A stretch of DNA of 64,000 bases. It comes from Eledone cirrhosa. Lineage: Eukaryota. The DNA is taken from the NCBI GenBank assembly GCA_964016885.1, contig OZ024751.1:43772001-43836000 (forward strand), read 5' to 3'. Of the stretch, positions 231 through 46,455 are shown piece by piece (position 1 is the stretch's first letter; the number at the start of each line of letters is the position of its first letter). The notes beneath the pieces were generated by a model that saw only the letters and a list, made by a program, of their open reading frames with translations, was not told the DNA's origin and ran no database searches. The position numbers and the translations under genes were made by a program.

Positions 231-298
231 ATGAAGAAAAAACCCAACCTTACGCTACCTCCTTCCGTTGCGGAACCCCAGAATGATTGTTCTAACGA
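231..298 (+). CDS. MAP2K1: MEK1/2 exon 1 (MKKKPNLTLPPSVAEPQNDCSN..., ERK-docking D-domain)
   Basis: AAAATG start. The basic-x-LxL D-motif resembles the N-termini of MEK1 and Dsor1. Donor GA|GTAAGT at 299; phase 2 joins exon 2 in frame (GA+T = Asp). Confidence 0.85.
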
Positions 299-22760: not shown

Positions 22761-22992
22761 TAAAAATACAACTGGTATGGGTGCCAGTGTAGAAGAACTT
22801 CAACAGGGTATCATGGAGTTAGATCTGGATGAGAAACAACGGAAGCGTTTGGAAGAATTCCTGAGGAAGAAGCAGCAAATCGGAGAATTGACTATCGATG
22901 ACATAGACAAAATTGGGGAACTTGGTTCCGGCAATGGAGGTGTGGTCCTGAAAGTGCGACACAAATCAACGAATCTGTTGATGGCTCATAAG
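22761..22992 (+). CDS. MAP2K1: MEK1/2 exon 2 (negative regulatory helix, Gly-rich loop GSGNGG, catalytic Lys)
   Basis: TTGCAG acceptor and AAG|GTAGGT donor. Encodes [16 protein letters not shown]...[26 protein letters not shown]. Confidence 0.97.
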
Positions 22993-23029
22993 GTAGGTGA
23001 AATATACTGTCAAATTCTTGGGGGTTTTT

Positions 23030-23062
<33 letters not shown>

Positions 23063-23581
23063 CCTACAGTACAGTTTGTGAAGACAATCATAATGTTGTG
23101 GGTTTGATTCCTCAACTGAGTTGTGTGTTGTGTTCTTCAGCAAAACAAGTCATTTCATGTTGCTCCAGTTTACTTAGCTGAAAATGAGTACCAGCAGCAA
23201 TAGCTGGGGGTTTAACCCTACGATGGACTGGCAACTTGTCCAGGGGAACTGTTGTGCTCTCAGTCATATCATATCATGAAAACTGGGAAATGCACTGCTC
23301 TGATGAGCCTCTGGTCTCAAGACAGGCTTAAGACTTTCTAAACTACAGACAGATGGTCATCTTTTTTCTCTCTTTTCACTAAGTAGTTGTTTGGTCTGCT
23401 TCTTTACATACTGAGGTCAGATCTCACTGAGGCCAACTTTACCTTCCAACCTTCCAAGGTTGTTGATAAAATATCAGTTCAGTACTAGAATTGATATATC
23501 CCCCCCCCCCTTCTCTCTTTCTCTCTCTTTCTCTTTCTCTCTTTCTCTCTCTCTCTTTCTTTCTCTCTCTTTCTCTCTCTT

Positions 23582-23613
<32 letters not shown>

Positions 23614-23631
23614 TCTCTTTTCTCTCTCTCT

Positions 23632-23736
<105 letters not shown>

Positions 23737-23979
23737 CTTTGTGTTATGAGAAGGGACCTCCCTTTTTCAGAAATGGAGAAAGGTTGAGTGGGGATCTAAC
23801 AACCTCTTCTCATAATAATAATAATAATAATGTCGTTGAATTAACAATAAAAAAGAAAATATCTTGGTATTTGCTCCGGCTCACTGGGTTCTGGGTTCAA
23901 ATCCTGTTGAGATCAACTATAGTTTTCATCCTTTTTATAATAACAATGATGATGATGATATTTGTGTTTCTGTTTGCAG

Positions 23980-24126
23980 CTTATTCATTTAGAAGTGAAA
24001 CCCTCGGTACGGAATCAAATATTTCGAGAACTCAAAGTACTCCATGAGTGTAACTCACCGTATATTGTAGGCTTTTATACGGCGTTCTTCTGTGATGGTG
24101 AAATCAATATATGCATGGAATATATG
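23980..24126 (+). CDS. MAP2K1: MEK1/2 exon 3 (alphaC helix to hinge)
   Basis: 147 nt, AG/GTGAGT boundaries. [49 protein letters not shown]. Confidence 0.97.
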
Positions 24127-25013
24127 GTGAGTAGCATTTATATAAACACACATGACAAAAAAATCACCCAGTCCACACTGTAAAGCAGTCGTATAGGCAC
24201 CATAGTAAAAAAAAAATCACCCAGTCCACACTATAAATGAGGTTGGTGTTAGGAAGGGCATCCAGCTGTAGAAATCAAGCCAAAATCAGTCTGTATGAGC
24301 AAGACATGGTCTCTTGACCTGGCATTGCCCACAACAGGACACCTGTCTGACCCATGATAGCGTGCAAGAATGGATGTAAAATGGTGACGATGATGATGAC
24401 AAACCAACACACACACACCAACAATCTTAGGCAAGACAGCAAGTACATCTTAATGCCCACAGTCTCTGTTTCTCATCAAGGTTTGTAGGTTTTCCGTGTC
24501 AATTCCAGTTTCTCTGGTTATGTCTGAGCTTTCTGTTTTCTAATCCATCACCCAAGAACACAAGTTGTCCGGTCCAGGAATCAAACACACGACCTTATTA
24601 TCATGAGTTTAACGCCCTAATTTCTAGGCCACTATATATATGGAATGTACAGTTAATAGTATTTATAGTACACATTTCCTGTTTGTGATAATCACATTAG
24701 GCGCAGCCGTGACTTTTGCAATCACATGGTTTCAGGTTTCCGGTTCTGTCCCACTGCATGGCTCCTTAAATAAGGGTCTCCCTACTAAGGCTTCAGGCCA
24801 ACTAGTGTCTTGTCAGTGAATATGGAGCCAAATACAGGTGTGTGTGTGTGTGTGTGTGTGTGTGTCAGTGTCCATATGTGTATGGAAGTGTGATTGTGTG
24901 TATGTGTGTGGAAGTGATGATGATGATGAATTAATAAATAATTGAAAAACAAATAAAAAAACCCAGTAACTATTGTTGTATAAACTTAAGAGATTCCCTT
25001 CCATTCTTGTCAG

Positions 25014-25091
25014 GATGGCGGCTCTTTGGATTTGATACTTAAAAAGGCAGGCAGGATTCCTGAACCAATTTTAGGGAAAATAACAATAGCT
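25014..25091 (+). CDS. MAP2K1: MEK1/2 exon 4
   Basis: 78 nt, CAG/GTAAGT boundaries. [26 protein letters not shown]. Confidence 0.97.
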
Positions 25092-25978
25092 GTAAGTATA
25101 AAGCCTATTTTTTAATTTTTACTGTTTATATTTAATGTTGTTCTTATTATTATCAGACCTATGGTAAAAGTGCATCTAGGACTATATTATTGAATCGACA
25201 GTCAATCGACTTTCGTCAAATCGGACCGAGGGAACAATGTTTCCATTGGTCTTTCTAATTGCTAATACTCTCTATCGGTCGCAACTCCAGGTAGAAGGAG
25301 CAGCGTAAAATAAAGTGTCTTGCCCAAGGACATAACTCATCGACCGGTCTGGCATTCGAACTTACAGCCTCACAATTTGCAATCCAATTATCTAACCACT
25401 CAGTCCCCCCCGCCCCCCAAAAAGTCCACCATGTAAGGTGGTAGTGCTGATGCCATGATAAAAAAGCACCCAGTCCTACCCTGTACAGTGGTAGTGCAGA
25501 TGTCATGATAAAAGGCTCCCAGTATATGCTGTAAAGTGGTTGGGCATTAGCTATAGTACATCCAACCAAAATGTAGCGTATGAACTAGATATGGCCACCT
25601 GAGTGGATTAGCTGCTGTTTACATGACAACCTGTCAAACCCATGCAAGCATGGACAACAGATGTTAAACGAGGTTGATGATGATGATCTTGTTCCAACAG
25701 ACTATGTTCAAAGATGTTCCAGCCATGACCATCCTATCTTATTCATTTTTTTTTTTTTTTTTTTTTTTTTAGACCTTATATATCGAAGACGATATTATTA
25801 TTGGCGGTGTGGTTGGTTTATAATCCATTGACAACAGGGTGGTTTATAATCCTCTCTTTATAAAGTTGGTGCCATAGAATCATTGCCTACTGTATCTTTC
25901 TTGCAAGACATAATAATGATGATGATGATGATTTTCAAATTTTATTCCATGTCTTGTTTCTATTTTACTTTGGTTTAG

Positions 25979-26030
25979 GTTATGAAAGGTTTGAATTATT
26001 TGCGTGAAAAACACCAGATCATGCATCGAG
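25979..26030 (+). CDS. MAP2K1: MEK1/2 exon 5
   Basis: 52 nt, TAG/GTAAGT boundaries. VMKGLNYLREKHQIMHR(D). Confidence 0.97.
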
Positions 26031-26051
26031 GTAAGTCTTATATATTTCTGA

Positions 26052-26312
<261 letters not shown>

Positions 26313-26420
26313 TAGGTATATATATGTATGTATTTAAAAGGTAAACAGAAATAACAACACAAACGGTACAGTGTATGGAAGGAATATATTAGTTTAATGC
26401 ACAAAATAGCAGAAAGAGGG

Positions 26421-26456
26421 TCTTAACGTTTCAGACGCTAGTCCTTCATCAGAAGA
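26421..26456 (-). ncRNA. Minimal type I hammerhead motif, second family
   Basis: UCUU-CUGAUGA-A-GGAC-uagc-GUCU-GAAAC-GUU-AAGA. The AACGUU palindrome allows only a dimeric helix III. Confidence 0.6.
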
Positions 26457-26700
26457 AAGAACGTATATTTCAGTTACCGAGGCGATAGTACAAAACGTGT
26501 ACCATCGTTCGGTTGCTCTTATTACTCAATCGATAAAAAAACGTTTTTATGTTTAACATGTATTACGTAGTTTCTATAGAATAAAACTATTATCTGCAAC
26601 TATATGTACGTATATGTATCTATGAATGTATATCTATGTATATATAGGAATGTATATGTATGTTTAAAGCACATATGTAATTCCTTTTCTTTGCTGACAG

Positions 26701-26890
26701 CCTGAACGATTACAAGGTACTCAATACACAGTCCAGTCTGACATATGGAGTGTTGGTCTATCGTTAGTGGAGATGGCTATTGGTCGGTATCCTATCCCCC
26801 CGCCAGACCCAGAACATTTGGAAAGCATATTTGGTGATAATTGTATGGAAGAACATCGGGAAGCTGCAATTACCGGGAAACCATTAAAAG
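26701..26890 (+). CDS. MAP2K1: MEK1/2 exon 7
   Basis: 190 nt. [45 protein letters not shown]...TGKPLK. Donor AAG|GTGATT, phase 1. Confidence 0.93.
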
Positions 26891-27187
26891 GTGATTCATT
26901 CATTAATGTTTGAATTAATTTGTCTTCAAGAATAATTATTTTCGTTTGTTTGTTTGAAGAGGCCAAGCTTTTTAGGCAGCTGCGGGTTGTGGCCTCTCTT
27001 CTTGATTAATTGGTAGAGCCATTAGACGGTCAGATAGGATGCCTTGTGGTATTCATTCCGGCTCTCTCTGAGTTCAGATCACTTCAAGGTCAACATTGAC
27101 TTTCAGCCTTTCAAGGTCGATAAAATACTAGTCTAATACTGGGGTCGATTCTTCCTGTACATGTTTTCTCACTTCATCTTTTTTTTT

Positions 27188-27232
<45 letters not shown>

Positions 27233-27856
27233 GGAAGAAATCAGCTATGTTCAGATCTGGAGAGGGAATGGGCTCCACTTAGTTTAAAATACCCCAAACG
27301 ATGTCCTTACAACTCCATCAGGAGTACTGGGCCACACAGCCTCTCTACAATGACTGGTTCAGAATGAGAGATATGAAATATGTAAATGAAATAGTTGAAT
27401 TCTTTGGAAGGTCCTCTAAACCCTTTGTTTAGCAAACTTTCCACAGTTGGATGCCTTTTCTATCATCAGCCACTTTACATTGTGTATTGGGTGTGTTCAT
27501 TGTGTAGATCACCAATATTAGGTCCTCCTGACACCTTGTTTGGCAAGTTTTCTACAGCTGGATGCCCTTCCTTTCACCAACCACATTACAGTGTGTATAG
27601 GGTGCATTATGTAGCTCACCAACACTAAAGAGATTATGTCCTTGTCTTAGCTGAAGAGTCAACATTCTATATATTCTTTATTATAGTTGTATAATTTCAT
27701 ATTGTATCCTTAGCTACATTGTATTAAATCTATTGTTTTGTTTTTTCATATTAAAAATAAGTGAGGCTTGGGTTCCTTCTGATTTATCAGACGGCCACCA
27801 TATTCAACATTCATCATCATCATCATCATCATCATTCATACTCAGGTGTCTTATTA

Positions 27857-28053
27857 CTGTATATACTCAAATATAAGCCGAGGAATATGTGGCCCCAAAA
27901 AAATCAATGATGGAAGGTGAGATCGGCTTATATTCAGGGCCAATATTTTGACAATTTTCACCAACTTTAAATTCTACATAAATAAGGTTTGGATTTTTTG
28001 CCTATTTCTCATACATAAAATAGTGGGGTTGGCTTATATTCGAGTACATATGG
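27857..28053. mobile_element. Tc1/mariner-superfamily (pogo/Tc2-like) MITE
   Basis: Imperfect ~25-bp TIRs CTGTATATACTCAAATATAAGCCGA / TTGGCTTATATTCGAGTACATATGG, with TA on both flanks. Confidence 0.65.
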
Positions 28054-28181
28054 TATTTGCAAATTGTAATTTTCAAGATAATCCACAAGCCTTCTTCAAT
28101 TTTAAACAGATAACTGTGTAAGTAACTGCTCAACTATTGTTGTTGTTGTTTGTTGTTGTTATAAGTTATCATCTGTTTCAG

Positions 28182-28267
28182 GTTGCCCTGGGGGCTTTCA
28201 GGTGGTTACAGGTGACGGCCCATTGCCTATGGCAATATTTGAGCTGCTTGAGTACATTGTACATGAG
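28182..28267 (+). CDS. MAP2K1: MEK1/2 exon 8a (alternative, mutually exclusive)
   Basis: TTTCAG acceptor, GAG|GTAATC donor, 86 nt, phase 1 to 0. (G)CPGGFQVVTGDGPLPMAIFELLEYIVHE. Confidence 0.85.
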
Positions 28268-28434
28268 GTAATCTAGTACAAGTTTTTGACCAGTTGCGCG
28301 TCAGTTGTTGCCATTCCGTTTCATTTATGTTCAGTGAATTATCTTTTTTACTCGAATGACTTGACTTTATTCTCATTTTTATCTCTCCTTCTCTTTCTCC
28401 CCTTCTCCTTCATGCTTTCTTCCTCTCTCACTCT

Positions 28435-28480
<46 letters not shown>

Positions 28481-28528
28481 CAAAGGTAAAAAATATAACT
28501 CTATTTGCATGTAGAGCTATAAAGGAAA

Positions 28529-28563
<35 letters not shown>

Positions 28564-30086
28564 CATAAAAAAGCACAGAAAGGAGGAAAGAAAAGAAAAA
28601 AAAGAGTATAAAATAAGGGTTGAGGTTGAACAGGGACTGAAACTAGGTCAAAATGTAAAAATACTTAAAAACTGAAATTAAGAAAGAAGAAAAATTTTTT
28701 CCAATGAAAATGGGTGTCAAAAAAGGAGGTGGGGGGGAAATAACCGCCCCCTGCTCACTAAAATATCCCCCCCCCCCGTTTTCTCCATACCATCTTAGTA
28801 ATTTCTCTGTCTTATCTTTATTATATGTTAATTATTAATTGTTAGAGCACCGGACAAAAATGCTATGTGGCACTTAGTTCAAATTCCTCCGAGGTCATCT
28901 TTGCCTTTCATTCTTTCAGAGTCGAGAAAATATAGTACCAGTAACACACTGGGGTTGATTTAATTGATTTTCCCCTTGTGCCATTATCAGAATGAGAAGC
29001 CATTATTGTTATAGTTGTTGTTGCTATTGTAGAATAAATAATTATCTAAAATACTTTGCAGTAATTAGTTTTGGTTGTTTATATTTGGTTGTTCAAATCC
29101 CAGTAAGGTTAACTTTGCTTTTCATTCTACTGGAGTGGAGCATTTCGATAAGATAAAATACTAGTCATGTACTGAGCTCAATATAATTGACTGTCCCCTT
29201 TCCCTTAAATTTCTGGCCCTGTGTTAGATTCTCAAGGGACCGGTGGGGTTGTTAAACCAGGCAACAGATTAAGTGTATTCTCCAAAATTGATGGGCTTTT
29301 GTGTAAGATAGAAATTATTATTAATTTTATGTTGTTATGGGGTCGATAAAATAAAGTACCAGTAATGTACTGGGTAATTGCTGGCCTTGTGCCAAAAGTA
29401 GAAACAATTATTATTAATTTTGTGTTGTTATTGTGTTACTGAGCACAGCTTAGTGTGCCTTGGTTATGTGCAGTGTTGTCTTTGGTGTTATTGAAAGTAC
29501 TCTTTGATATGTGTGTGCAAGGCCTTATTACTATTATTATTAGTGAGGGCATGCTTTGCAGTATTTAGTTCTGACTTTCTACATTGAGTTCAAATCATAT
29601 CAAGTTCAACTTTACCTTTCATCCTTCTTGGATTGGTAAAATAAAGTATCAGTTAAGTGTTGCGGGGGCCTGATGTAATTTATTTTCTTCTTCCCTGAAA
29701 TTGCTGGCCTTGTGCCAAAGAAAGAATAATCTTTATCATTAGTTTTATTTTCAATATGTGTTATCACTGCATTATCGAGCACAGCTATGTGTGCCTTGGC
29801 TGAACGCAGTGTTGTTTTTGGTGTTGTTATATCTATTGTGTTGAGAGTATTCTTTGTAATATGTATGCTGTGCCTAGTATTGCTATTTTCTGTATGTTGT
29901 ATATATATTTGTAATTCCTATTATTACTGATAAAGTACCAGTTCAGATCCCACTGAGGTTGTTAGGTTTGCCTGCCATCCTTACTGGGGTCGATGATATA
30001 TAGTACCGCGATTTAATTGAGTTTATCCCCCTTCTCCACATACACAAATTGCAGGCTTTGTGCCTAGATTAGAAAAATCCTGCCAC

Positions 30087-30186
30087 GGTTAACTTTGCCT
30101 TTCATCCTTACAGGGTCGATAAAATAAAGTACCAGTAATACACTGGGTAATTGCTGGCCTTGTGCCTAAAGTAGAAACAATTATTA
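30087..30186 (+). mobile_element. 5'-truncated SINE family B between exons 8a and 8b (older copies at 28870..30070)
   Basis: Matches the 3' half of 53977..54171. Confidence 0.8.
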
Positions 30187-31258
30187 TTATTATTTGTTAG
30201 CAAAACAAAAAATACTTTGGGCTAAATTTCAAGAAATGTTTAATTTTCAAGAAATAATCCATAGAAAAATTCTGTAGATTTTAGAGTTATTGAGATGACT
30301 TAATCTTGTATTTCCTGGTTTAACACCACCATCTCCAGCATCGTCACCACCATCCAGCTAGCCTTTAGGGGATTTTTGCAGAGACCCCTCTATTACAAGC
30401 GTTCAGACCAGGTTCCCAGAATGAGGATACCTCCCTCTCATCCTGCCCCCCTACTTAAAGAGGCACTCTAAAAGGTTATGGATGCTACCATTCACTCATT
30501 GACTAAACAGTAAAATGTAGTTTTAAAAAATTGAGTAAGTTTCAAAAAGCTGGTACAATACAGTAGAAATATATAAAGGGCAAAGGATTACAAATAATGT
30601 TTTAGCCAGTATATTTCAACATATTTCAGAGCTAAAACCCCTTTTCAAATCGGGAATTGAAATGGTTCAAAATAAAAACGAATTGTTTGCAGAGTGGAAA
30701 GACAAAAATAAAAAGAATGAGTGTAACTAATTGATTGGCTTTTATTTTAATGAACTAGAAGTAATTATGGATGATCACAATTTTTAATAATGATAATTAT
30801 TTGTAACAATAATGACAATACTCCACCCTTAAAACTCCCTTTCTGTCACCCCCTGCTTTCCCAAAATCTCACTTGGTTCCAAAAGAAAAGAAATAAGACA
30901 AAAAAAAAAAAAAAAAAGAGATCTACTTTAGTGCTGTTGTGTAGCTTGATTCAAACTAAGCTTTCTCTCGAACTAACTCATGGCTATCTTCAAAGGTCAA
31001 CTCGCTCTCTTCTATAACATTATCATCGTTATTATTTCTGCCGTCGCTGCTGCCACCATTGCTGCTACCACCATGACCAATACAATGCTCTACAGCTCCA
31101 TCTCTGGATTTCAAACTGTCTGGACTATAACCCAACCTGCTTCTTTATTTTTTTTTTTATTTTAATTTTAATTTTTATTTTTTTTGTTTTGTTTTTCCAC
31201 CTCTTCAGTCTGTTTATATTTAAGTTGCTATTTTTTTCTGCTTTTTTCTTGCCTTCAG

Positions 31259-31353
31259 ATAGCCGAAATAACGTTAGCTTCCAAAGTCCGCCAGGCAGTG
31301 ATGGGCCTCGTCCGATGGCCATTTTTGAGTTGTTAGATTATATCGTAAACGAG
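31259..31353 (+). CDS. MAP2K1: MEK1/2 exon 8b (alternative, mutually exclusive; closer to canonical)
   Basis: Long polypyrimidine tract plus CAG, GAG|GTATGT donor, 95 nt, phase 1 to 0. (D)SRNNVSFQSPPGSDGPRPMAIFELLDYIVNE. Confidence 0.93.
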
Positions 31354-31384
31354 GTATGTTGTGTGGGAAGAAAAAAAAATATAC

Positions 31385-31416
<32 letters not shown>

Positions 31417-33759
31417 ACAGTTTTCTTTACTAACCCATATCATTTCCTTCATCAATACATCATTCTTGCCACTTGACGCTCGTTACCACGGAGACCTCTA
31501 TCTTTGGATAATTTCTTATCCTCAAACCACTTCCATCCTTCCTGATTCTCCTTCCTTCTCTCTATCTCTCCCGCCCTCACACTATCTATACTGTCTTGGC
31601 GTAATTGCTTGTATGTGTATATATGCATGTATGTGTATTCATGTATCATCATCATCATCACTGTTTTACATCCATTTTTTCATGCTGGCATGGGTTAGAC
31701 AGGCCAGATGACTGCGTCTCTCTCGTACTATCCATTCTGGTATGGTTTCTATAGCTGTGTGTGTCTGTGTGTATATACACACTTGATAGTATATGTTTAT
31801 ACACATGTATTGCACCTTACAGGGTAGATCATCATCATCATCATTGTTTTAATGTTTGCTTACTCTGCTAGCAAGGGTTGGACGGGTCTACATAGACCAA
31901 GTCAGTACTGAAGTGGGGCTACTGATCTCCCAGTCAGGCCATGGATCTGCATCTCGCTTAAGTATGATATCACGGTCTACTGATACAACTGAAAGGGCCT
32001 CCCAACTATTGTTTGGCAGGTTTTCTACAACTGGATACCCTGCCTATCACTAACCACTTTACACCATGTACTGGCTGCATTTGTGTAGATCACCAACATG
32101 AGAGAGGCTAGATATAGATATTCATTATTCCTTTATTTATAATCAGCCATAATACTTATTTCTATGGTGTACATGATTACATAATATTGCTAATGTAATA
32201 TGTCCCACTACCCCCACCCCGTCCATACCGCCCCTTTCAATGTAAAGTTATGTTGGTACCACAACATCCAGTCCGAAACAAATGAGGTCGTGTAGGTGTC
32301 ACGACAAAAAAAAACACACAGTCCACGCTGTAATGTGGCCGTGTAGGTAACACGGTAAAAACCTCCCAGCTCCACACTGTAAATGTGGTTGGTGTTAGGA
32401 AGGGCATCCAGCCGTAGAAAACCCGCCAGACAGTCCTATGCGAGCAAGACAACCACTCTTGCCTCAAGTGGGAAAACTCCCATCCAAACCCATGCAAGCG
32501 TGGAATATAGACGTTAAACGATGATGATATATAGAAAAACATAAAATACACACATGTATATATACATTCTCTTGTCCTTGTAAAGCATGTTTCTTTCTCT
32601 CTCTAGCATGTTCTAAACTACCCCAAATATCGCCCAGTAATGTCAGTTTTGCTTTCCCTTCCCTTCCCACACCTAATTTATCTACTTTCTCAACCTTTTC
32701 CCTCACATTCACTGATGGCAATGCATTATGTCCTTGAGCAAGGCACTATATTTCATGTTGCTCCTTTAGCCAGGAATTCCACCCGACTCAGTAAGCAAAT
32801 GAGGTCTGGGATCTTGTTGATTCAGACCATTAAGCATTGTTCATTGACACAGCTACTTAGCCAGCAGGAGCTACCTTTGTATGATTGTTTGACCTGCTAG
32901 AAATCAGAGCCAAATATCCCTCTAATTACACACTACTATCAGAAAAGGAAGTGAAAGACATTTTAGGTAATGCAATTCTAGATTCTAAATACATGTCTGA
33001 ATAATAGATGAGATGGTCATGACCCAGATGCCTTTGGTTATAGATGTCTGCCCAGTCAGAGCTGACCTAGGGTTAAATAATAACTTGATTATCACAGCTC
33101 TTTTGTGCTTGTAGTATGATTTGGATTGTATATATAATATAGCACGGGTTATATTTGTGCGCGTATATACAAACATATACACATTTACACTGCATTTGTT
33201 TGTTTATGTTGCGTAAACACCACATCTAGATATACTGTACTTTCCTCTACATATGTATACATACATACATGGTGGCTGCCAACTCGTTTTCAAGTACGAC
33301 CACTACTTTATATCCATGTAGAACCCCTACCGATGCGCTGAACGAGTGTGACTTTTTAGTCCACACACACACACACGCACACGCACACGCACTTCATTTT
33401 ACATCAATTTTCCACGCTAGCATGGGTTAAACGAGATGTCCTGTTGTGGGCAATGCTAGGTCAAGTGACCATGTCTTGCACATACAGAATTGATTTTGGC
33501 TCGGTTTCTACAGCTGTATGCTCTTCCTAACGCGTGTGTGTGTGTATATATATAAACACAGCACTGGCTACATTCATCATCATCTTCGTTTAACGTCCAT
33601 TTTCCACGCTAGCATGGGTAGTGTAATAGTTAATGTAACTGTTTGCACTATATGCCCCAGAGTTGTTTATCTTCCTCTTTCACTATCTTTATGCCGTATA
33701 AACACTCTTAGTTCACCAACACCTCCACCACCATTGCCACAACTACCACTACAATCAGT

Positions 33760-35826
33760 GCCACTACCTCTTCCACCACCTCACCACTATCACCTCCACC
33801 ACCTCCACTGTAACCTCCACCACCTCCACAGTCACCACTATCACCTCCACCACCTCCACAGTCACCACTATCACCTCCACCACCTCCACAGTCACCACTA
33901 TCACCTCCACAGTCACCACTATCACCTCCACCACCTCCACAGTCACCACTATCACTACCACCACCTCTACCGTCACAATCACCACCACCTCTACCACCTC
34001 TACCATCACAATCACCACCACCACCTCTACCATCACAATCACCACCACCACCTCTACCATCACCACCACCACCACCTCTACCATCACAATCACCACCACC
34101 GCCACCTCTACCGTCACAATCACCACCACCACCTCTACCGTCACAATCACCACCACCACCTCTACCGTCACAATCACCACCACCACCTCTACCATCACAA
34201 TCACCACCACCAACTCTACCATCACCACCACCACCACCTCTACCATCACAATCACCACCACCGCCACCTCTACCATCACAATCACCACCACCACCACCTC
34301 TACCGTCACAATCACCACCACCACCTCTACCGTCACAATCACCACCACCACCTCTACCATCACAATCACCACCACCACCTCTACCATCACAATCACCACC
34401 ACCACCACCTCTACCATCACAATCACCACCACCACCACCTCTACCGTCACAATCACCACCACCACCTCTACCATCACAATCACCACCACCACCTCTACCA
34501 TCACAATCACCACCACCACCACCTCTACCATCACAATCACCACCACCACCACCACCTCTACCATCACAATCACCACCACCACCACCTCTACCATCACAAT
34601 CACCACCACCACCACCTCTACCGTCACAATCACCACCACCACCACCTCTACCGTCACAATCACCACCACCACCACCACCTCTACCGTCACAATCACCACC
34701 ACCACCTCTACCGTCACAATCACCACCACCACCACCTCTACCGTCACAATCACCACCACCACCACCTCTACCATCACAATCACCACCACCACCACCTCTA
34801 CCATCACAATCACCACCACCACCTCTACCGTCACAATCACCACCACCACCACCTCTACCGTCACAATCACCATCACCACCACCTCTACCGTCACAATCAC
34901 CACCACCACCACCTCTACCGTCACAATCACCATCACCACCACCTCTACCGTCACAATTACCACCACCAACACCTCTACCGTCACAATCACCACCACCACC
35001 ACCTCTACCATCACAATCACCACCACCTCCTCCGTCACAATCACCACCACCACCACCTCTACCATCACAATCACCACCACCACCTCTACCATCACAATCA
35101 CCACCACCACCTATACCATCACAATCACCACCACCACCACCTCTACCGTCACAATCACCACCACCACCACCTCTACCGTCACAACCACCACCACCTCTAC
35201 CGTCACAACCACCACCACCTCTACCATCACAATCACCACCACCTCTACCATCACAATCACCACCACCTCTACCATCACAATCACCACCACCTCTACCATC
35301 ACAATCACCACCACCTCTACCATCACAATCACCACCACCACCACCTCTACCATCACAATCACCACCACACCTCTACCATCACCACCACCTCTACCATCAC
35401 AATCACCACCACACCTCTACCATCACCACCACCTCTACCATCACAATCACCACCACACCTCTACCATCACAATCACCACCACCACCTCTACCATCACAAT
35501 CACCACCACCACCTCTACCATCACAATCACCACCACACCTCTACCATCACAATCACCACCACCACCTCTACCATCACAATCACCACCACCACCTCTACCA
35601 TCACAATCACCACCACCACCTCTACCATCACAACCACCACCACCCCTACCATCACAACCACCACCACCTCTACCGTCACAATCACCACCACCACCTCTAC
35701 CGTCACAATCACCACCACCACCTCTACCATCACAACCACCACCACCTCTACCGTCACAATCACCACCACCACCTCTACCATCACAATCACCACCACCACC
35801 TCTACCATCACAATCACCACCACCAC
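33760..35826. repeat. (CAC)n-based minisatellite CTCTACCRTCACAAT(CAC)n
   Basis: Direct inspection; source of the poly-His and poly-Val ORF artefacts. Confidence 0.95.
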
Positions 35827-35904
35827 TTCTTTTTTGGTTTTCTTAATCTCATAAATTGACTTTTTACTTCATCTTTGTTGCACTTTTTGACAAATTTCAG
35901 AACT

Positions 35905-37910
<2,006 letters not shown>

Positions 37911-43065: not shown

Positions 43066-43127
43066 CCACCACCTTCATTACCAAAAGGAAAATTTTCCCC
43101 AGAATTCATAGATTTTGTGGATAGATG
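43066..43127 (+). CDS. MAP2K1: MEK1/2 exon 9
   Basis: 62 nt, TTTAG/GTAAGT boundaries. PPPSLPKGKFSPEFIDFVDR(C). Confidence 0.95.
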
Positions 43128-43251
43128 GTAAGTTGTTATCATCCTGGATTTGGTCTCTTAAGTCTGTCAGTCTTGGGACCAGGCTGTTGCCTGATCATGG
43201 AAAAATGCTGGGCAAAACAGAAAATTGACACCATTGTCTGTAGTTCATCAG

Positions 43252-44730
43252 CTAGTTTAACACCACCACATCACATTGACACCTAGTTTAACACCACCAC
43301 ATCACATTGGCACCTAGTTTAACACCACCACATCACATTGGCACCTAGTTTAACACCACCACATCACATTGGCACCTAGTTTAACACCACCACATCACAT
43401 TGGCACATAGTTTAACACCACCACATCACATTGGCACATAGTTTAACACCACCACATCACATTGGCACCTAGTTTAACACCACCACATCACACTGACACC
43501 TAGTTTAACACCACCACATTACATTGGCACATAGTTTAACACCACCACATCACATTGGCACCTAGTTTAACATCACCACATCACATTGGCACCTAGTTTA
43601 ACACCACCACATCACATTGGCACATAGTTTAACACCACCACATCACATTGGCGCCTAGTTTAACACCACCACATCACATTGGCACCTAGTTTAACACCAC
43701 CACATCACATTGACACCTAGTTTAACACCACCACATCACATTGACACCTAGTTTAACACCACCACATTACATTGGCACATAGTTTAACACCACCACATCA
43801 CATTGGCACCTAGTTTAACATCACCACATCACATTGGCACCTAGTTTAACACCACCACATCACATTGGCACCTAGTTTAACATCACCACATCACATTGGC
43901 ACCTAGTTTAACATCACCACATCACATTGGCACCTAGTTTAACATCACCACATCACATTGGCACCTAGTTTAACATCACCACATCACATTGGCACCTAGT
44001 TTAACATCACCACATCACATTGGCACCTAGTTTAACATCACCACATCACATAGGCACCTGGTTTAACATCACATCACATTGGCACCAAGTTTAACACCAC
44101 CACATTACATTGTCACCTAGTTTAACACCACCACATTACATTGGCACCTAGTTTAACACCACCATATCACATTGGTACCTAGTTTAACATCACCACATCA
44201 CATTGGCACGTAGTTTAACACCACCACATCACATTGGCACCTAGTTTAACATCACCACATCACATTGGCACTTAGTTTAACATCACCACATCACATTGGC
44301 ACCTAGTTTAACAGCACCACATCACATTGGCACCTAGTTTAACATCACCGCATCACATTGGCACCTAGTTTAACACCACCGCATCACATTGGCACCTAGT
44401 TTAACACCACCACATCACATTGGCACCTAGTTTAACACCACCACATCACATTGGCACCTAGTTTAACACCACCACATCACATTGGCACCTAGTTTAACAT
44501 CACCACATCACATTGGCACCTAGTTTAACACCACCACATCACATTGGCACCTAGTTTAACATCACCACACCACATTGGCACCTAGTTTAACACCATCACG
44601 TCACATTGGCACATAGTTTAGCACCACATCACATTGGCACCTAGTTTAACACCACCATATCACATTGGCACCTAGTTTAACACCACCATATCACATTGGT
44701 ACCTAGTTTAACACCACCACATCACATTGT
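43252..44730. repeat. 31-bp minisatellite, ~47 copies, in MEK intron 9
   Basis: Unit CTAGTTTAACACCACCACATCACATTGGCAC. Confidence 0.95.
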
Positions 44731-45157
44731 TACCCAATTTCATCACTTTTGATTCCATTGTTGGTAGTCCTCATCCAGAATTTGGTGGGGTTGAGTAATA
44801 TAACTGTTTTCACTATTAAATTTGTGTTTGGAATATAACTTAATAAAGGTTCTTGGATAAAATTATGGAAGGTCTTTAGATGAATATAAACACTTTATAT
44901 TTATACAGCTTTGTATCATAGAACCAGTGGCAGTTTCAGGCAGTTGGACATCAAAAGGGTTAACAAACACACACATGGTATTACATGTTATAGAAAACAT
45001 TTTTTAATGATTTTCAAAATTAAGAACATAATTTTTCTCTCTAATTAATAAAACTGCAATCATCTTTAATGACACATTAGAATATTACTAATAATTTTTT
45101 TTTCTTAATTCTTTTTAATAGTCTTCATTAAAGTTTTAATTTTTTTATTTTTCAAAG

Positions 45158-45203
45158 CTTAAAGAAAAATCCATCAGAAAGGGCAGACTTACAGTCACTG
45201 AAG
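45158..45203 (+). CDS. MAP2K1: MEK1/2 exon 10
   Basis: 46 nt, AAG/GTAAAC boundaries. (C)LKKNPSERADLQSLK. Confidence 0.93.
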
Positions 45204-45503
45204 GTAAACTACTACTACTACTACTACTACTATGACTACTTCTATTACTACTCTCTCTCACATATATAAATCAGGATGGAAGCAGTTTGAAACATTATTC
45301 AACAGATTACTTGATACTTTGGCTGGTAGAGTGGTTATATTATAGGGTCGAGACCCAACAGCAGAGCTCCTGCCGTTTCCAGTTACCTTCCTCACCAGAT
45401 CAGGGTTTTGTGAAGGAGCTGGGTTAGTTGCTGACCACTCGACCATGAAGCAGATTCAACTAAATTACATGGTATGAGTAGCAGGCAGAAACCTAACCCA
45501 ACC

Positions 45504-45536
<33 letters not shown>

Positions 45537-45677
45537 CATACACATACGAAAAGTAAACATAAAACTACAATGAAGATATACATTAGTTTAACGCTTAGGC
45601 GGCATGAATAGACCTGTTTTTTCTATCACTGCTCACTCTCCTCTAACTTTCTATTTCTTCTTTAATTTATCATTCTA

Positions 45678-45713
45678 TTTTCTGATGAAGGACTAGCATC
45701 TGAAACGTTAAGA
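45678..45713 (+). ncRNA. Minimal hammerhead motif, second family, sense within MEK intron 10
   Basis: UUUU-CUGAUGA-A-GGACuagcAUCU-GAAAC-GUU-AAGA, with one helix II mismatch. It lies inside an imperfect inverted repeat spanning 45565..45763. Confidence 0.5.
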
Positions 45714-45968
45714 CTCTTTTCCTACTATATCAAGCATAAAACTAATATATTTCTTCATTGTACTGTGTCATTTACATACACATGTACACACACACACGTG
45801 TATATATATATATATATATTCATTAGTTAAGCAAAACAAGACCACAAATTTCACAAGGAAGACATTATTAAAAGATTGTCAACATAGTTTTAGATTCACC
45901 AATCTCTCTTCTCCTCTCCTATCTCCATCTCTCTTAAGATTGGTTTCTCTTGAACTGTGTATATATAT

Positions 45969-46290
45969 ATCATCATCATCATCATTTCATTTTACGTCCA
46001 CTTTTCCCTGCTTGCAAGGGTGGGACGGGAACTGATTCTGGCTTGATTTCTACAGCTGGATGCCCTTCCTAACACCAACCTCATTTACAGTGAGTGCTGG
46101 GTGCTTTTTTTGCAGTGGAATGATATGGACCCCAGTCCCTATCATCTCATTTCTACAGCTGAGTAAACTGGAGCAATGTGAAATAAAGTGTCTTGCTCAA
46201 GGAAACAACACACATCACCCAGTCTGAGAATTGAACTCACAACCTTTCAATTGCAAGGCCAATGCTCTAACCACTAAGCCATGTGCCTCC
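45969..46290 (-). mobile_element. SINE family A, near full length, in MEK intron 10
   Basis: Reverse complement is nearly identical to 7559..7900 apart from an internal deletion. Confidence 0.85.
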
Positions 46291-46359
46291 ATATATATAT
46301 ATATATATATATTTCATTAAGATGTTTAATGTTTATTTTCTCTGTTTTCTCCACTACAG

Positions 46360-46455
46360 GACCATCTATTTGTGAGGACAGCTGAATCTGAACCTATTGA
46401 TGTCGGATTTTGGCTGTGTAAAGTCATGGATATGGATCCAGAACAACAAGGATGA
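46360..46455 (+). CDS. MAP2K1: MEK1/2 exon 11 (terminal coding exon); protein is 393 aa with 8a or 396 aa with 8b
   Basis: TACAG acceptor. DHLFVRTAESEPIDVGFWLCKVMDMDPEQQG-TGA aligns with the MEK DVD region (HxFI...VDxxxWLC). Confidence 0.93.
   Translation, partial: DHLFVRTAESEPIDVGFWLCKVMDMDPEQQG

Follow-up and report, generated by a model that had tools for sequence, protein, structure and literature searches.

Gene organization

The window, a 64-kb stretch of the 3.0 Gb Eledone genome, contains a MEK1/2 gene. Its coding sequence is divided into 11 exons between positions 231 and 46455 of the window, all with AG/GT boundaries, and exon 8 is present in two versions:

231..298, + strand: coding exon 1, start codon and a basic-hydrophobic N-terminal peptide
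22761..26252, + strand: coding exons 2–6 (22761–22992, 23980–24126, 25014–25091, 25979–26030 and 26128–26252), kinase N-lobe to activation loop
26701..26890, + strand: exon 7, constitutive, αF and the first part of the MEK insert, ending in phase 1
28182..28267, + strand: exon 8a (A type, 86 nt), Cys-containing acidic loop and αG with E at the D315 position
31259..31353, + strand: exon 8b (B type, 95 nt), basic Ser-rich loop and αG with D315
43066..46455, + strand: coding exons 9–11 (43066–43127, 45158–45203 and 46360–46455, stop included)

The best matches of the encoded kinase among solved structures are human MEK1 (E = 5e-164), fly dSOR1 and MEK2, and its S218/S222-type activation loop is identical in the alignment, identifying the protein as a member of the MEK1/2 family. 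An insert is present between αF and αG and is followed by the MAIFELL block of αG. Exon 7 is 97–98% identical to Octopus and Argonauta proteins and has one match in the genome among 13 scored candidates. The N-terminal peptide of exon 1 resembles the ERK docking motif.

The human and lophotrochozoan proteins are orthologous kinases with a regulatory loop in the same place. Whereas the insert of human MEK is proline-rich, that of the lophotrochozoan proteins, including Eledone, mostly is not. The share contributed by exon 7 (26800–26890) is not proline-rich and is predicted to form two helices (residues 271–277 and 282–292), a form common to the lophotrochozoan proteins among the matches listed. 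Two introns contain tandem arrays: a 2-kb array of 27/30-bp units lies beside a 2-kb TA-rich array in the 8b–9 intron (33827–37906), and a 31-bp unit is present in 48 copies in intron 9 (43252–44729).

Exons 8a and 8b form a frame-coupled pair

In the MEK1/2 gene, exon 8 is duplicated in tandem, and either copy by itself completes the reading frame. The two adjacent exons are homologous, lie between exons 7 and 9, and have the same phases and canonical splice sites; the coordinates, peptides, AG/GT ends and phases that the earlier note had given for them were all reproduced. Both lengths are 2 mod 3. By conceptual splicing, 8a alone gives a kinase of 393 residues and 8b alone one of 396, while including both or neither shifts the frame, as had been proposed, with the first stop at codon 352 or 317, respectively. 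Joint inclusion is thus unproductive, which makes the two exons mutually exclusive in any complete product. Nonsense-mediated decay follows a 50-nt rule. The premature stops lie 125 nt (both exons) and 49 nt (neither exon) before the last junction, so that decay would be a likely safeguard, clearing double-inclusion transcripts, and is borderline for transcripts with neither exon.

The intron between 8a and 8b is 2991 nt long, which rules out steric exclusion. In a search for long complementary docking or selector elements, the complementary stretches reached at most 9–13 nt, the 13-mer lying in a repeat-like stretch; thus neither a steric nor a pairing mechanism for the exclusivity was found.

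Over their last 18 codons, the two exons agree in 15 amino acids, for 10 of which the codons differ synonymously (pS 1.04, pN 0.12). This bears out the earlier suggestion of coding constraint on both copies. No third copy of exon 8, and no other duplicated exon, was found within the 64-kb window. The note had also described the pair as exchanging the end of the insert together with αG. The exchange is real, but it covers only the last 16–19 residues of the insert; the remainder is encoded by the constitutive exon 7.

Transcript evidence and splice signals

Four sequencing runs, none of them recorded as RNA, were compared with positions 25900–33600. Pieces from three of them (X1–X3) are unspliced and silent on splicing, leaving X4 as the sole transcript-type run, in the form of contigs only. 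A 1635-nt contig of X4 (depth 23) joins exon 6, exon 7 and 8b, which demonstrates the use of 8b in this species. Among the junctions proposed earlier as a check, 26890>31259 was therefore seen in the X4 contigs, while neither a 7>8a nor an 8a>9 junction was. The 8a bin (28213–28469) is not covered by X4; as rare forms are dropped from contigs, this is no evidence that 8a is unused.

In relatives, both exons are represented in gene models and transcript-derived proteins; in Eledone, X4 shows 8b only. Exons of the 8a type (hereafter A, with B for the 8b type) are spliced to both exon 7 and exon 9 in the full-length transcripts P0068 and P0166, and A is joined to exon 9 also in L038/L039. Of 50 proteins with Logan records, 30 could be classed, 28 as B and 2 as A. 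Logan contigs for fully spliced forms number 351 for B vs 1 for A, in a set that oyster dominates and in which minor forms are dropped. The splice signals of 8a are also the weaker: its acceptor has 13 pyrimidines in 20 positions vs 18 for 8b and an AG-free zone of 14 vs 32 nt, and its donor matches at 6 of 9 positions vs 7 of 9. The dominance of B in Logan and the weaker signals of 8a suggest that 8b is likely the default exon and 8a a minor, regulated one. Regulation would probably be by cell type.

Some gene models depart from this pattern. Four end A inside the following intron (P0137, P0158, P0161 and P0006), and O. vulgaris models contain both exons (P0126) or neither (P0128). These are possibly real unproductive forms or annotation artefacts.

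A/B pairs in other species

To place the pair in context, proteins were gathered by a search with the exon-7 protein (the best 120 of 965), to which 44 were added from cluster look-ups of 10, giving 164. For named species the gene layout was taken from gene models, and layout at the DNA level from loci in a scan of metagenome contigs (66 loci, 37 with an A block). An αG block was found in 137 of the 164 proteins, 139 blocks in total among the matches listed. By pattern, 35 of these 139 are of A type, to which one A-like Lineus exon missed by the pattern can be added; none of the 17 blocks listed from named arthropods, vertebrates and Priapulus is.

When A/B pairs were picked by species among the matches listed, 15 of 17 shared 150 of 150 upstream residues, and 13 of those also 40 of 40 downstream. 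Same-gene pairs are present in Octopus sinensis (RefSeq isoform models X1 and X2, XP_029646578.1 and XP_029646579.1), abalones, scallops, oysters, Mya, Pomacea, Babylonia, Bradybaena and Lingula, and those of Argopecten and the chiton Liolophura match upstream only. The pairs from Arion and Lineus (147/150 upstream) likely represent paralogues or different species and were set aside as same-gene evidence. In at least four phyla, both exons are retained, each with its own signature.

Exon 8a is identical to its O. sinensis counterpart and 93% identical to that of the chiton, while for 8b these values are 97% and 58%. Octopus and chiton likewise share 93% of A vs 58% of B. Across the 15 residues before αG, A exons of 10 taxa have a mean identity of 0.66 and B exons one of 0.50, with A higher in 27 of 45 pairs and lower in 12. 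The stronger conservation of A fits the gain of a feature better than the mere loss of sites.

Pomacea, Babylonia and two further records (P0144, P0026, P0170 and P0174) carry a tandem duplication of the acceptor and 5′ half of exon A. In these caenogastropods an alternative 3′ splice site thereby gives an A form that is 15–17 residues longer.

Selection on the peptide

The metagenome loci allow the A exon to be compared at the DNA level. An AG is present 86 nt ahead of the end of the exon in 36 of the 37 A loci and 89 nt ahead of it in the remaining one. Comparison of 26 distinct 86-nt A exons with 8a gives pS of 0.58–0.91 and pN of 0.08–0.22; among the 26 themselves, pS averages 0.68 and pN 0.083 (325 pairs, including many between close kin). 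No similarity between the intron flanks of 8a and those of the 66 loci was detected. Synonymous sites are thus saturated while the protein is conserved and the flanks are not, indicating that selection acts on the peptide.

Such selection argues against an unproductive 8a, a poison or terminal exon whose double inclusion, decay or read-through into the intron would reduce MEK levels. The stop 125 nt before the last junction upon double inclusion would fit this explanation, as would the O. vulgaris models with both exons or neither, the A-plus-intron models and the rarity of A in Logan records. However, DNA-level conservation in the absence of protein-level selection, the hallmark of a poison exon, was not found, genes with A as their only exon 8 exist (see below), and P0068 and P0166 are full-length A transcripts. 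We regard an unproductive exon as highly improbable, and 8a as very likely a real, translated alternative exon.

Changes in αG and the adjacent loop

Helix αG is the surface where MEK meets its activators RAF/KSR and its substrate ERK. The block shared by 8a and 8b aligns to M308–E320 of human MEK1. The αG block of 8b is identical to that of human MEK1 and MEK2, and the hydrophobic docking face is identical in 8a and 8b. In a cryo-EM study of MEK1–ERK1, A309, I310, F311, L314 and V318 are described as binding the F-site of ERK, and E312, D315 and E320 as contacting N274/K276 of ERK1 (bioRxiv 10.64898/2026.03.13.710243). Simulations report a salt bridge between MEK1 D315 and BRAF R671 that is absent with KSR1, as well as contacts of residues 305–307 with the BRAF activation loop (PMC9068654). 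The helix is also reported to lie near the CNK-bound surface (PMC11257983).

Two of these positions separate the exon types. Among the matches listed, 34 of 35 A blocks have E at the D315 position, and 96 of the 104 other blocks have D; D>E is a conservative change, and E is also found in 7 of the 104 non-A blocks listed, one of them the A-like Lineus exon. At the 306 position, again among the matches listed, L is the residue in 34 of 35 A blocks; 83 of the 104 others have R or K. Both changes had been pointed out earlier together with the serine content (four Ser and one S-P in 8b; no Ser in 8a), and these contrasts hold; 8a has one Thr. A third proposed change, N>H, turned out to be lineage-specific and was rejected as a diagnostic of A exons, H being present in just 5 of 35 A blocks among the matches listed.

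The loops differ as well. Cys is present in 38 of 46 A loops and missing from those of Lingula, Mya and two bryozoan-like loci; G-D-G-P-L-P is nearly invariant; and K/R occurs in only two loops, in both as a gene-model junction residue. Of the 39 distinct B loops, 38 contain K/R and 15 an R-x-S/T motif, which is absent from Eledone 8b. Judged from the sequences, A differs constantly from B in R>L and D315>E and in having an acidic loop with a Cys where B has a basic Ser-rich one. The two O. sinensis isoforms were modelled with AlphaFold from alignments of 24 rows, with mean pLDDT of 68 and 74; the models contain the same C-lobe helices. The loops (residues 302–314 and 300–315) are modelled with low confidence, both unordered, and no structural difference between them was seen in these models.

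On the basis of these differences, we lean towards the view that 8a gives a minor, active MEK whose docking to RAF and ERK is retuned and which lacks the basic Ser-rich loop found in 8b. Both isoforms would dock on RAF/KSR/ERK via the identical hydrophobic face of αG, the 8a form with altered polar contacts to RAF and ERK. The D315>E and R>L changes, together with the loop swap, may alter affinity, scaffold binding and the access of kinases that phosphorylate the loop, and the acidic Cys-containing loop would alter the phospho-input.

The earlier note had favored a different role, in which ERK feedback acts on a proline-directed site of 8b comparable to T292 of MEK1; 8a would lack this site, so that one gene could make feedback-sensitive and feedback-insensitive MEKs. 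T292 is reported as a negative-feedback site in the human loop (PMC12871702). The sequence contrast behind this proposal stands, since 8b has its S-P, S/T-P is found in none of the 46 A loops, and B exons of scallop, mussel and ark clam keep a T-P or S-P at the same place. The generalization does not: S/T-P occurs in only 12 of the 39 distinct B variants, which weakens the proposal, and in 5 of 18 paired B exons among the matches listed. It is absent in Argonauta and two further cephalopod-like records, as well as in oysters, gastropods, chiton and Lingula; both exons are kept in several of these. A proline-directed site conserved in one form only was thus not found, and the S-P of Eledone 8b is a lineage feature. 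The higher conservation of A is also left unexplained. Moreover, MEK2 is reported to have an S298-like site, S306 (PMC5320536), so that an analogy with MEK1 vs MEK2 could rest only on T292. A feedback switch is therefore doubtful as the general role of the pair, although in Octopus and certain bivalves it may still operate as a side effect.

Alternatively, the A loop could be a dedicated short binding or modification motif, through which the A isoform would gain a new partner or be directed to a new location. The candidate motif consists of Cys followed by hydrophobic-acidic-V/I-x-T/S-G-D-G-P-L-P, which might act, for example, through Cys lipidation or redox chemistry, or through β-strand binding to a ubiquitin-like fold. 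The prevalence of Cys, the near-invariance of G-D-G-P-L-P and the much higher Octopus–chiton identity of A are in its favor, and the duplication in caenogastropods of exactly the 5′ unit of A makes such a role attractive. However, the Cys is missing from the exons named above, and a LIR-like core and a SIM-like pattern are present in only 15 and 19 of 46 A loops, respectively; neither identity is general enough, and both were rejected. We consider a dedicated motif rather unlikely as the main explanation, and it overlaps the retuning of docking rather than excluding it.

Origin of the A exon and genes with A only

Phylogenetic trees of the exon peptides place all A rows on one side of a single branch, both with 50 rows (23 A rows; support 98/99) and with 61 rows (30 A rows; support 98/97). 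In the latter, a single A group takes in molluscs, annelids, a brachiopod, a nemertean and two bryozoan-like loci. The B rows are intermingled with five outgroup rows (priapulid, chelicerate and vertebrate). It is thus likely, as far as the sequences indicate, that the 8a copy arose once in early lophotrochozoans and that A is the derived copy, B being the ancestral-like one. The trees use some 30 columns, their bootstraps are unsettled and their A rows were labelled by motif, so that a single origin is supported rather than proven.

Exon A precedes B in L002, L005, L008, L041 and L042. In the bryozoan-like L041 (1278–1394) and L042 (836–883), a longer, strongly diverged A exon that lacks the Cys lies upstream of a short B exon. 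Exon 7 of L041 resembles that of Bugula.

In 15 of the 43 loci examined, all annelid-like, A is followed by exon 9 with no second block, and 8 of them have exon 7 on the same contig:

L006, L009, L011–L015, L017, L023, L029, L031, L032, L034–L036: annelid-like loci with A only

L038–L040 and L043 were excluded from this count as fused or non-A, and a second match in L027 is spurious. A model from Helobdella (P0080) also uses A. These annelid-like loci show that A alone can serve as exon 8. B was possibly lost, or A and B split between paralogues; the locus search is biased to A. Serines have been gained in the A loops of these genes.

If A can stand in for B, the two exons might be functionally equivalent and kept by drift or redundancy, as their common hydrophobic αG face would also allow. 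The retention of both with distinct signatures across at least four phyla speaks against this, and the A-only genes may have B-only sister paralogues that the search, biased to A, did not detect. Equivalence thus has a negligible chance of being correct, and a difference in docking between the isoforms remains our preferred reading.

In L038 (2082–2380) and L039, an A-like exon is fused to exons 9–11 and preceded by intron-like sequence with an AG. From its sequence, this looks like a partly processed copy whose 5′ half has diverged.

Relation to known exon pairs and implications

Duplicated, mutually exclusive exons are a known class, and a homologous exon pair inside the kinase domain of a MAPK-cascade member is likewise found in JNK (exons 6a/6b of MAPK8/MAPK9) and in MAPK14. 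The 6a/6b swap of JNK is described as changing 5–7 residues and substrate binding (PMC8699841), and MAPK8 and MAPK14 are listed as tandem duplicated exon events (PMC8373072). Those are vertebrate genes of the MAPK tier, whereas the MEK pair belongs to the MAP2K tier of lophotrochozoans, has exons of unequal length and swaps a whole loop. In the available text of PMC9741552 and PMC8373072, no duplicated-exon event is named for MAP2K1/2, and the sole MEK1 splice form in the corresponding text of a review is MEK1b, with a 26-residue deletion in subdomain 5 (PMC8699841). FYN-type subfunctionalization and the protostome Ca-α1T exon pair are described as ancient pairs of which paralogues later keep one exon (PMC9741552). 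The genes differ, but the A-only annelid-like genes may parallel the one-exon paralogues of the FYN type.

Both MEK isoforms are already present in automatic annotation: RefSeq/GenBank models X1/X2 of mollusc and Lingula MEK1-like genes are the same two proteins, with no description of their homology, age, exclusivity or function. A cloned variant of Aplysia MEK1 reportedly exists. No paper on the exon pair was found among the matches listed in a search of mostly open-access literature, and the term 'MEK' is absent from the main text of a paper on the Aplysia CNS transcriptome (PMC9282427). The pair is real and ancient, and apparently undescribed in the literature.

Lophotrochozoans likely tune ERK signaling by splicing, not by a second MEK gene. 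More tentatively, exon choice may have provided a second, cell-type-restricted and possibly neuronal MEK since the early lophotrochozoan radiation, with the Cys-containing loop and altered αG coupling it to a different upstream partner or scaffold. If so, this second MEK would be an unrecognized, splice-defined branch of the ERK pathway in animals used to study memory and regeneration, such as octopus, Aplysia, oysters and annelids.

The role of the loop beside αG is still debated for human MEK1 (PMC12871702, PMC9068654). A deeply conserved natural pair of segment 'alleles' is a ready-made experiment on this loop and on D315. Studies of ERK in Aplysia, cephalopods, bivalves and annelids may pool two MEK isoforms.
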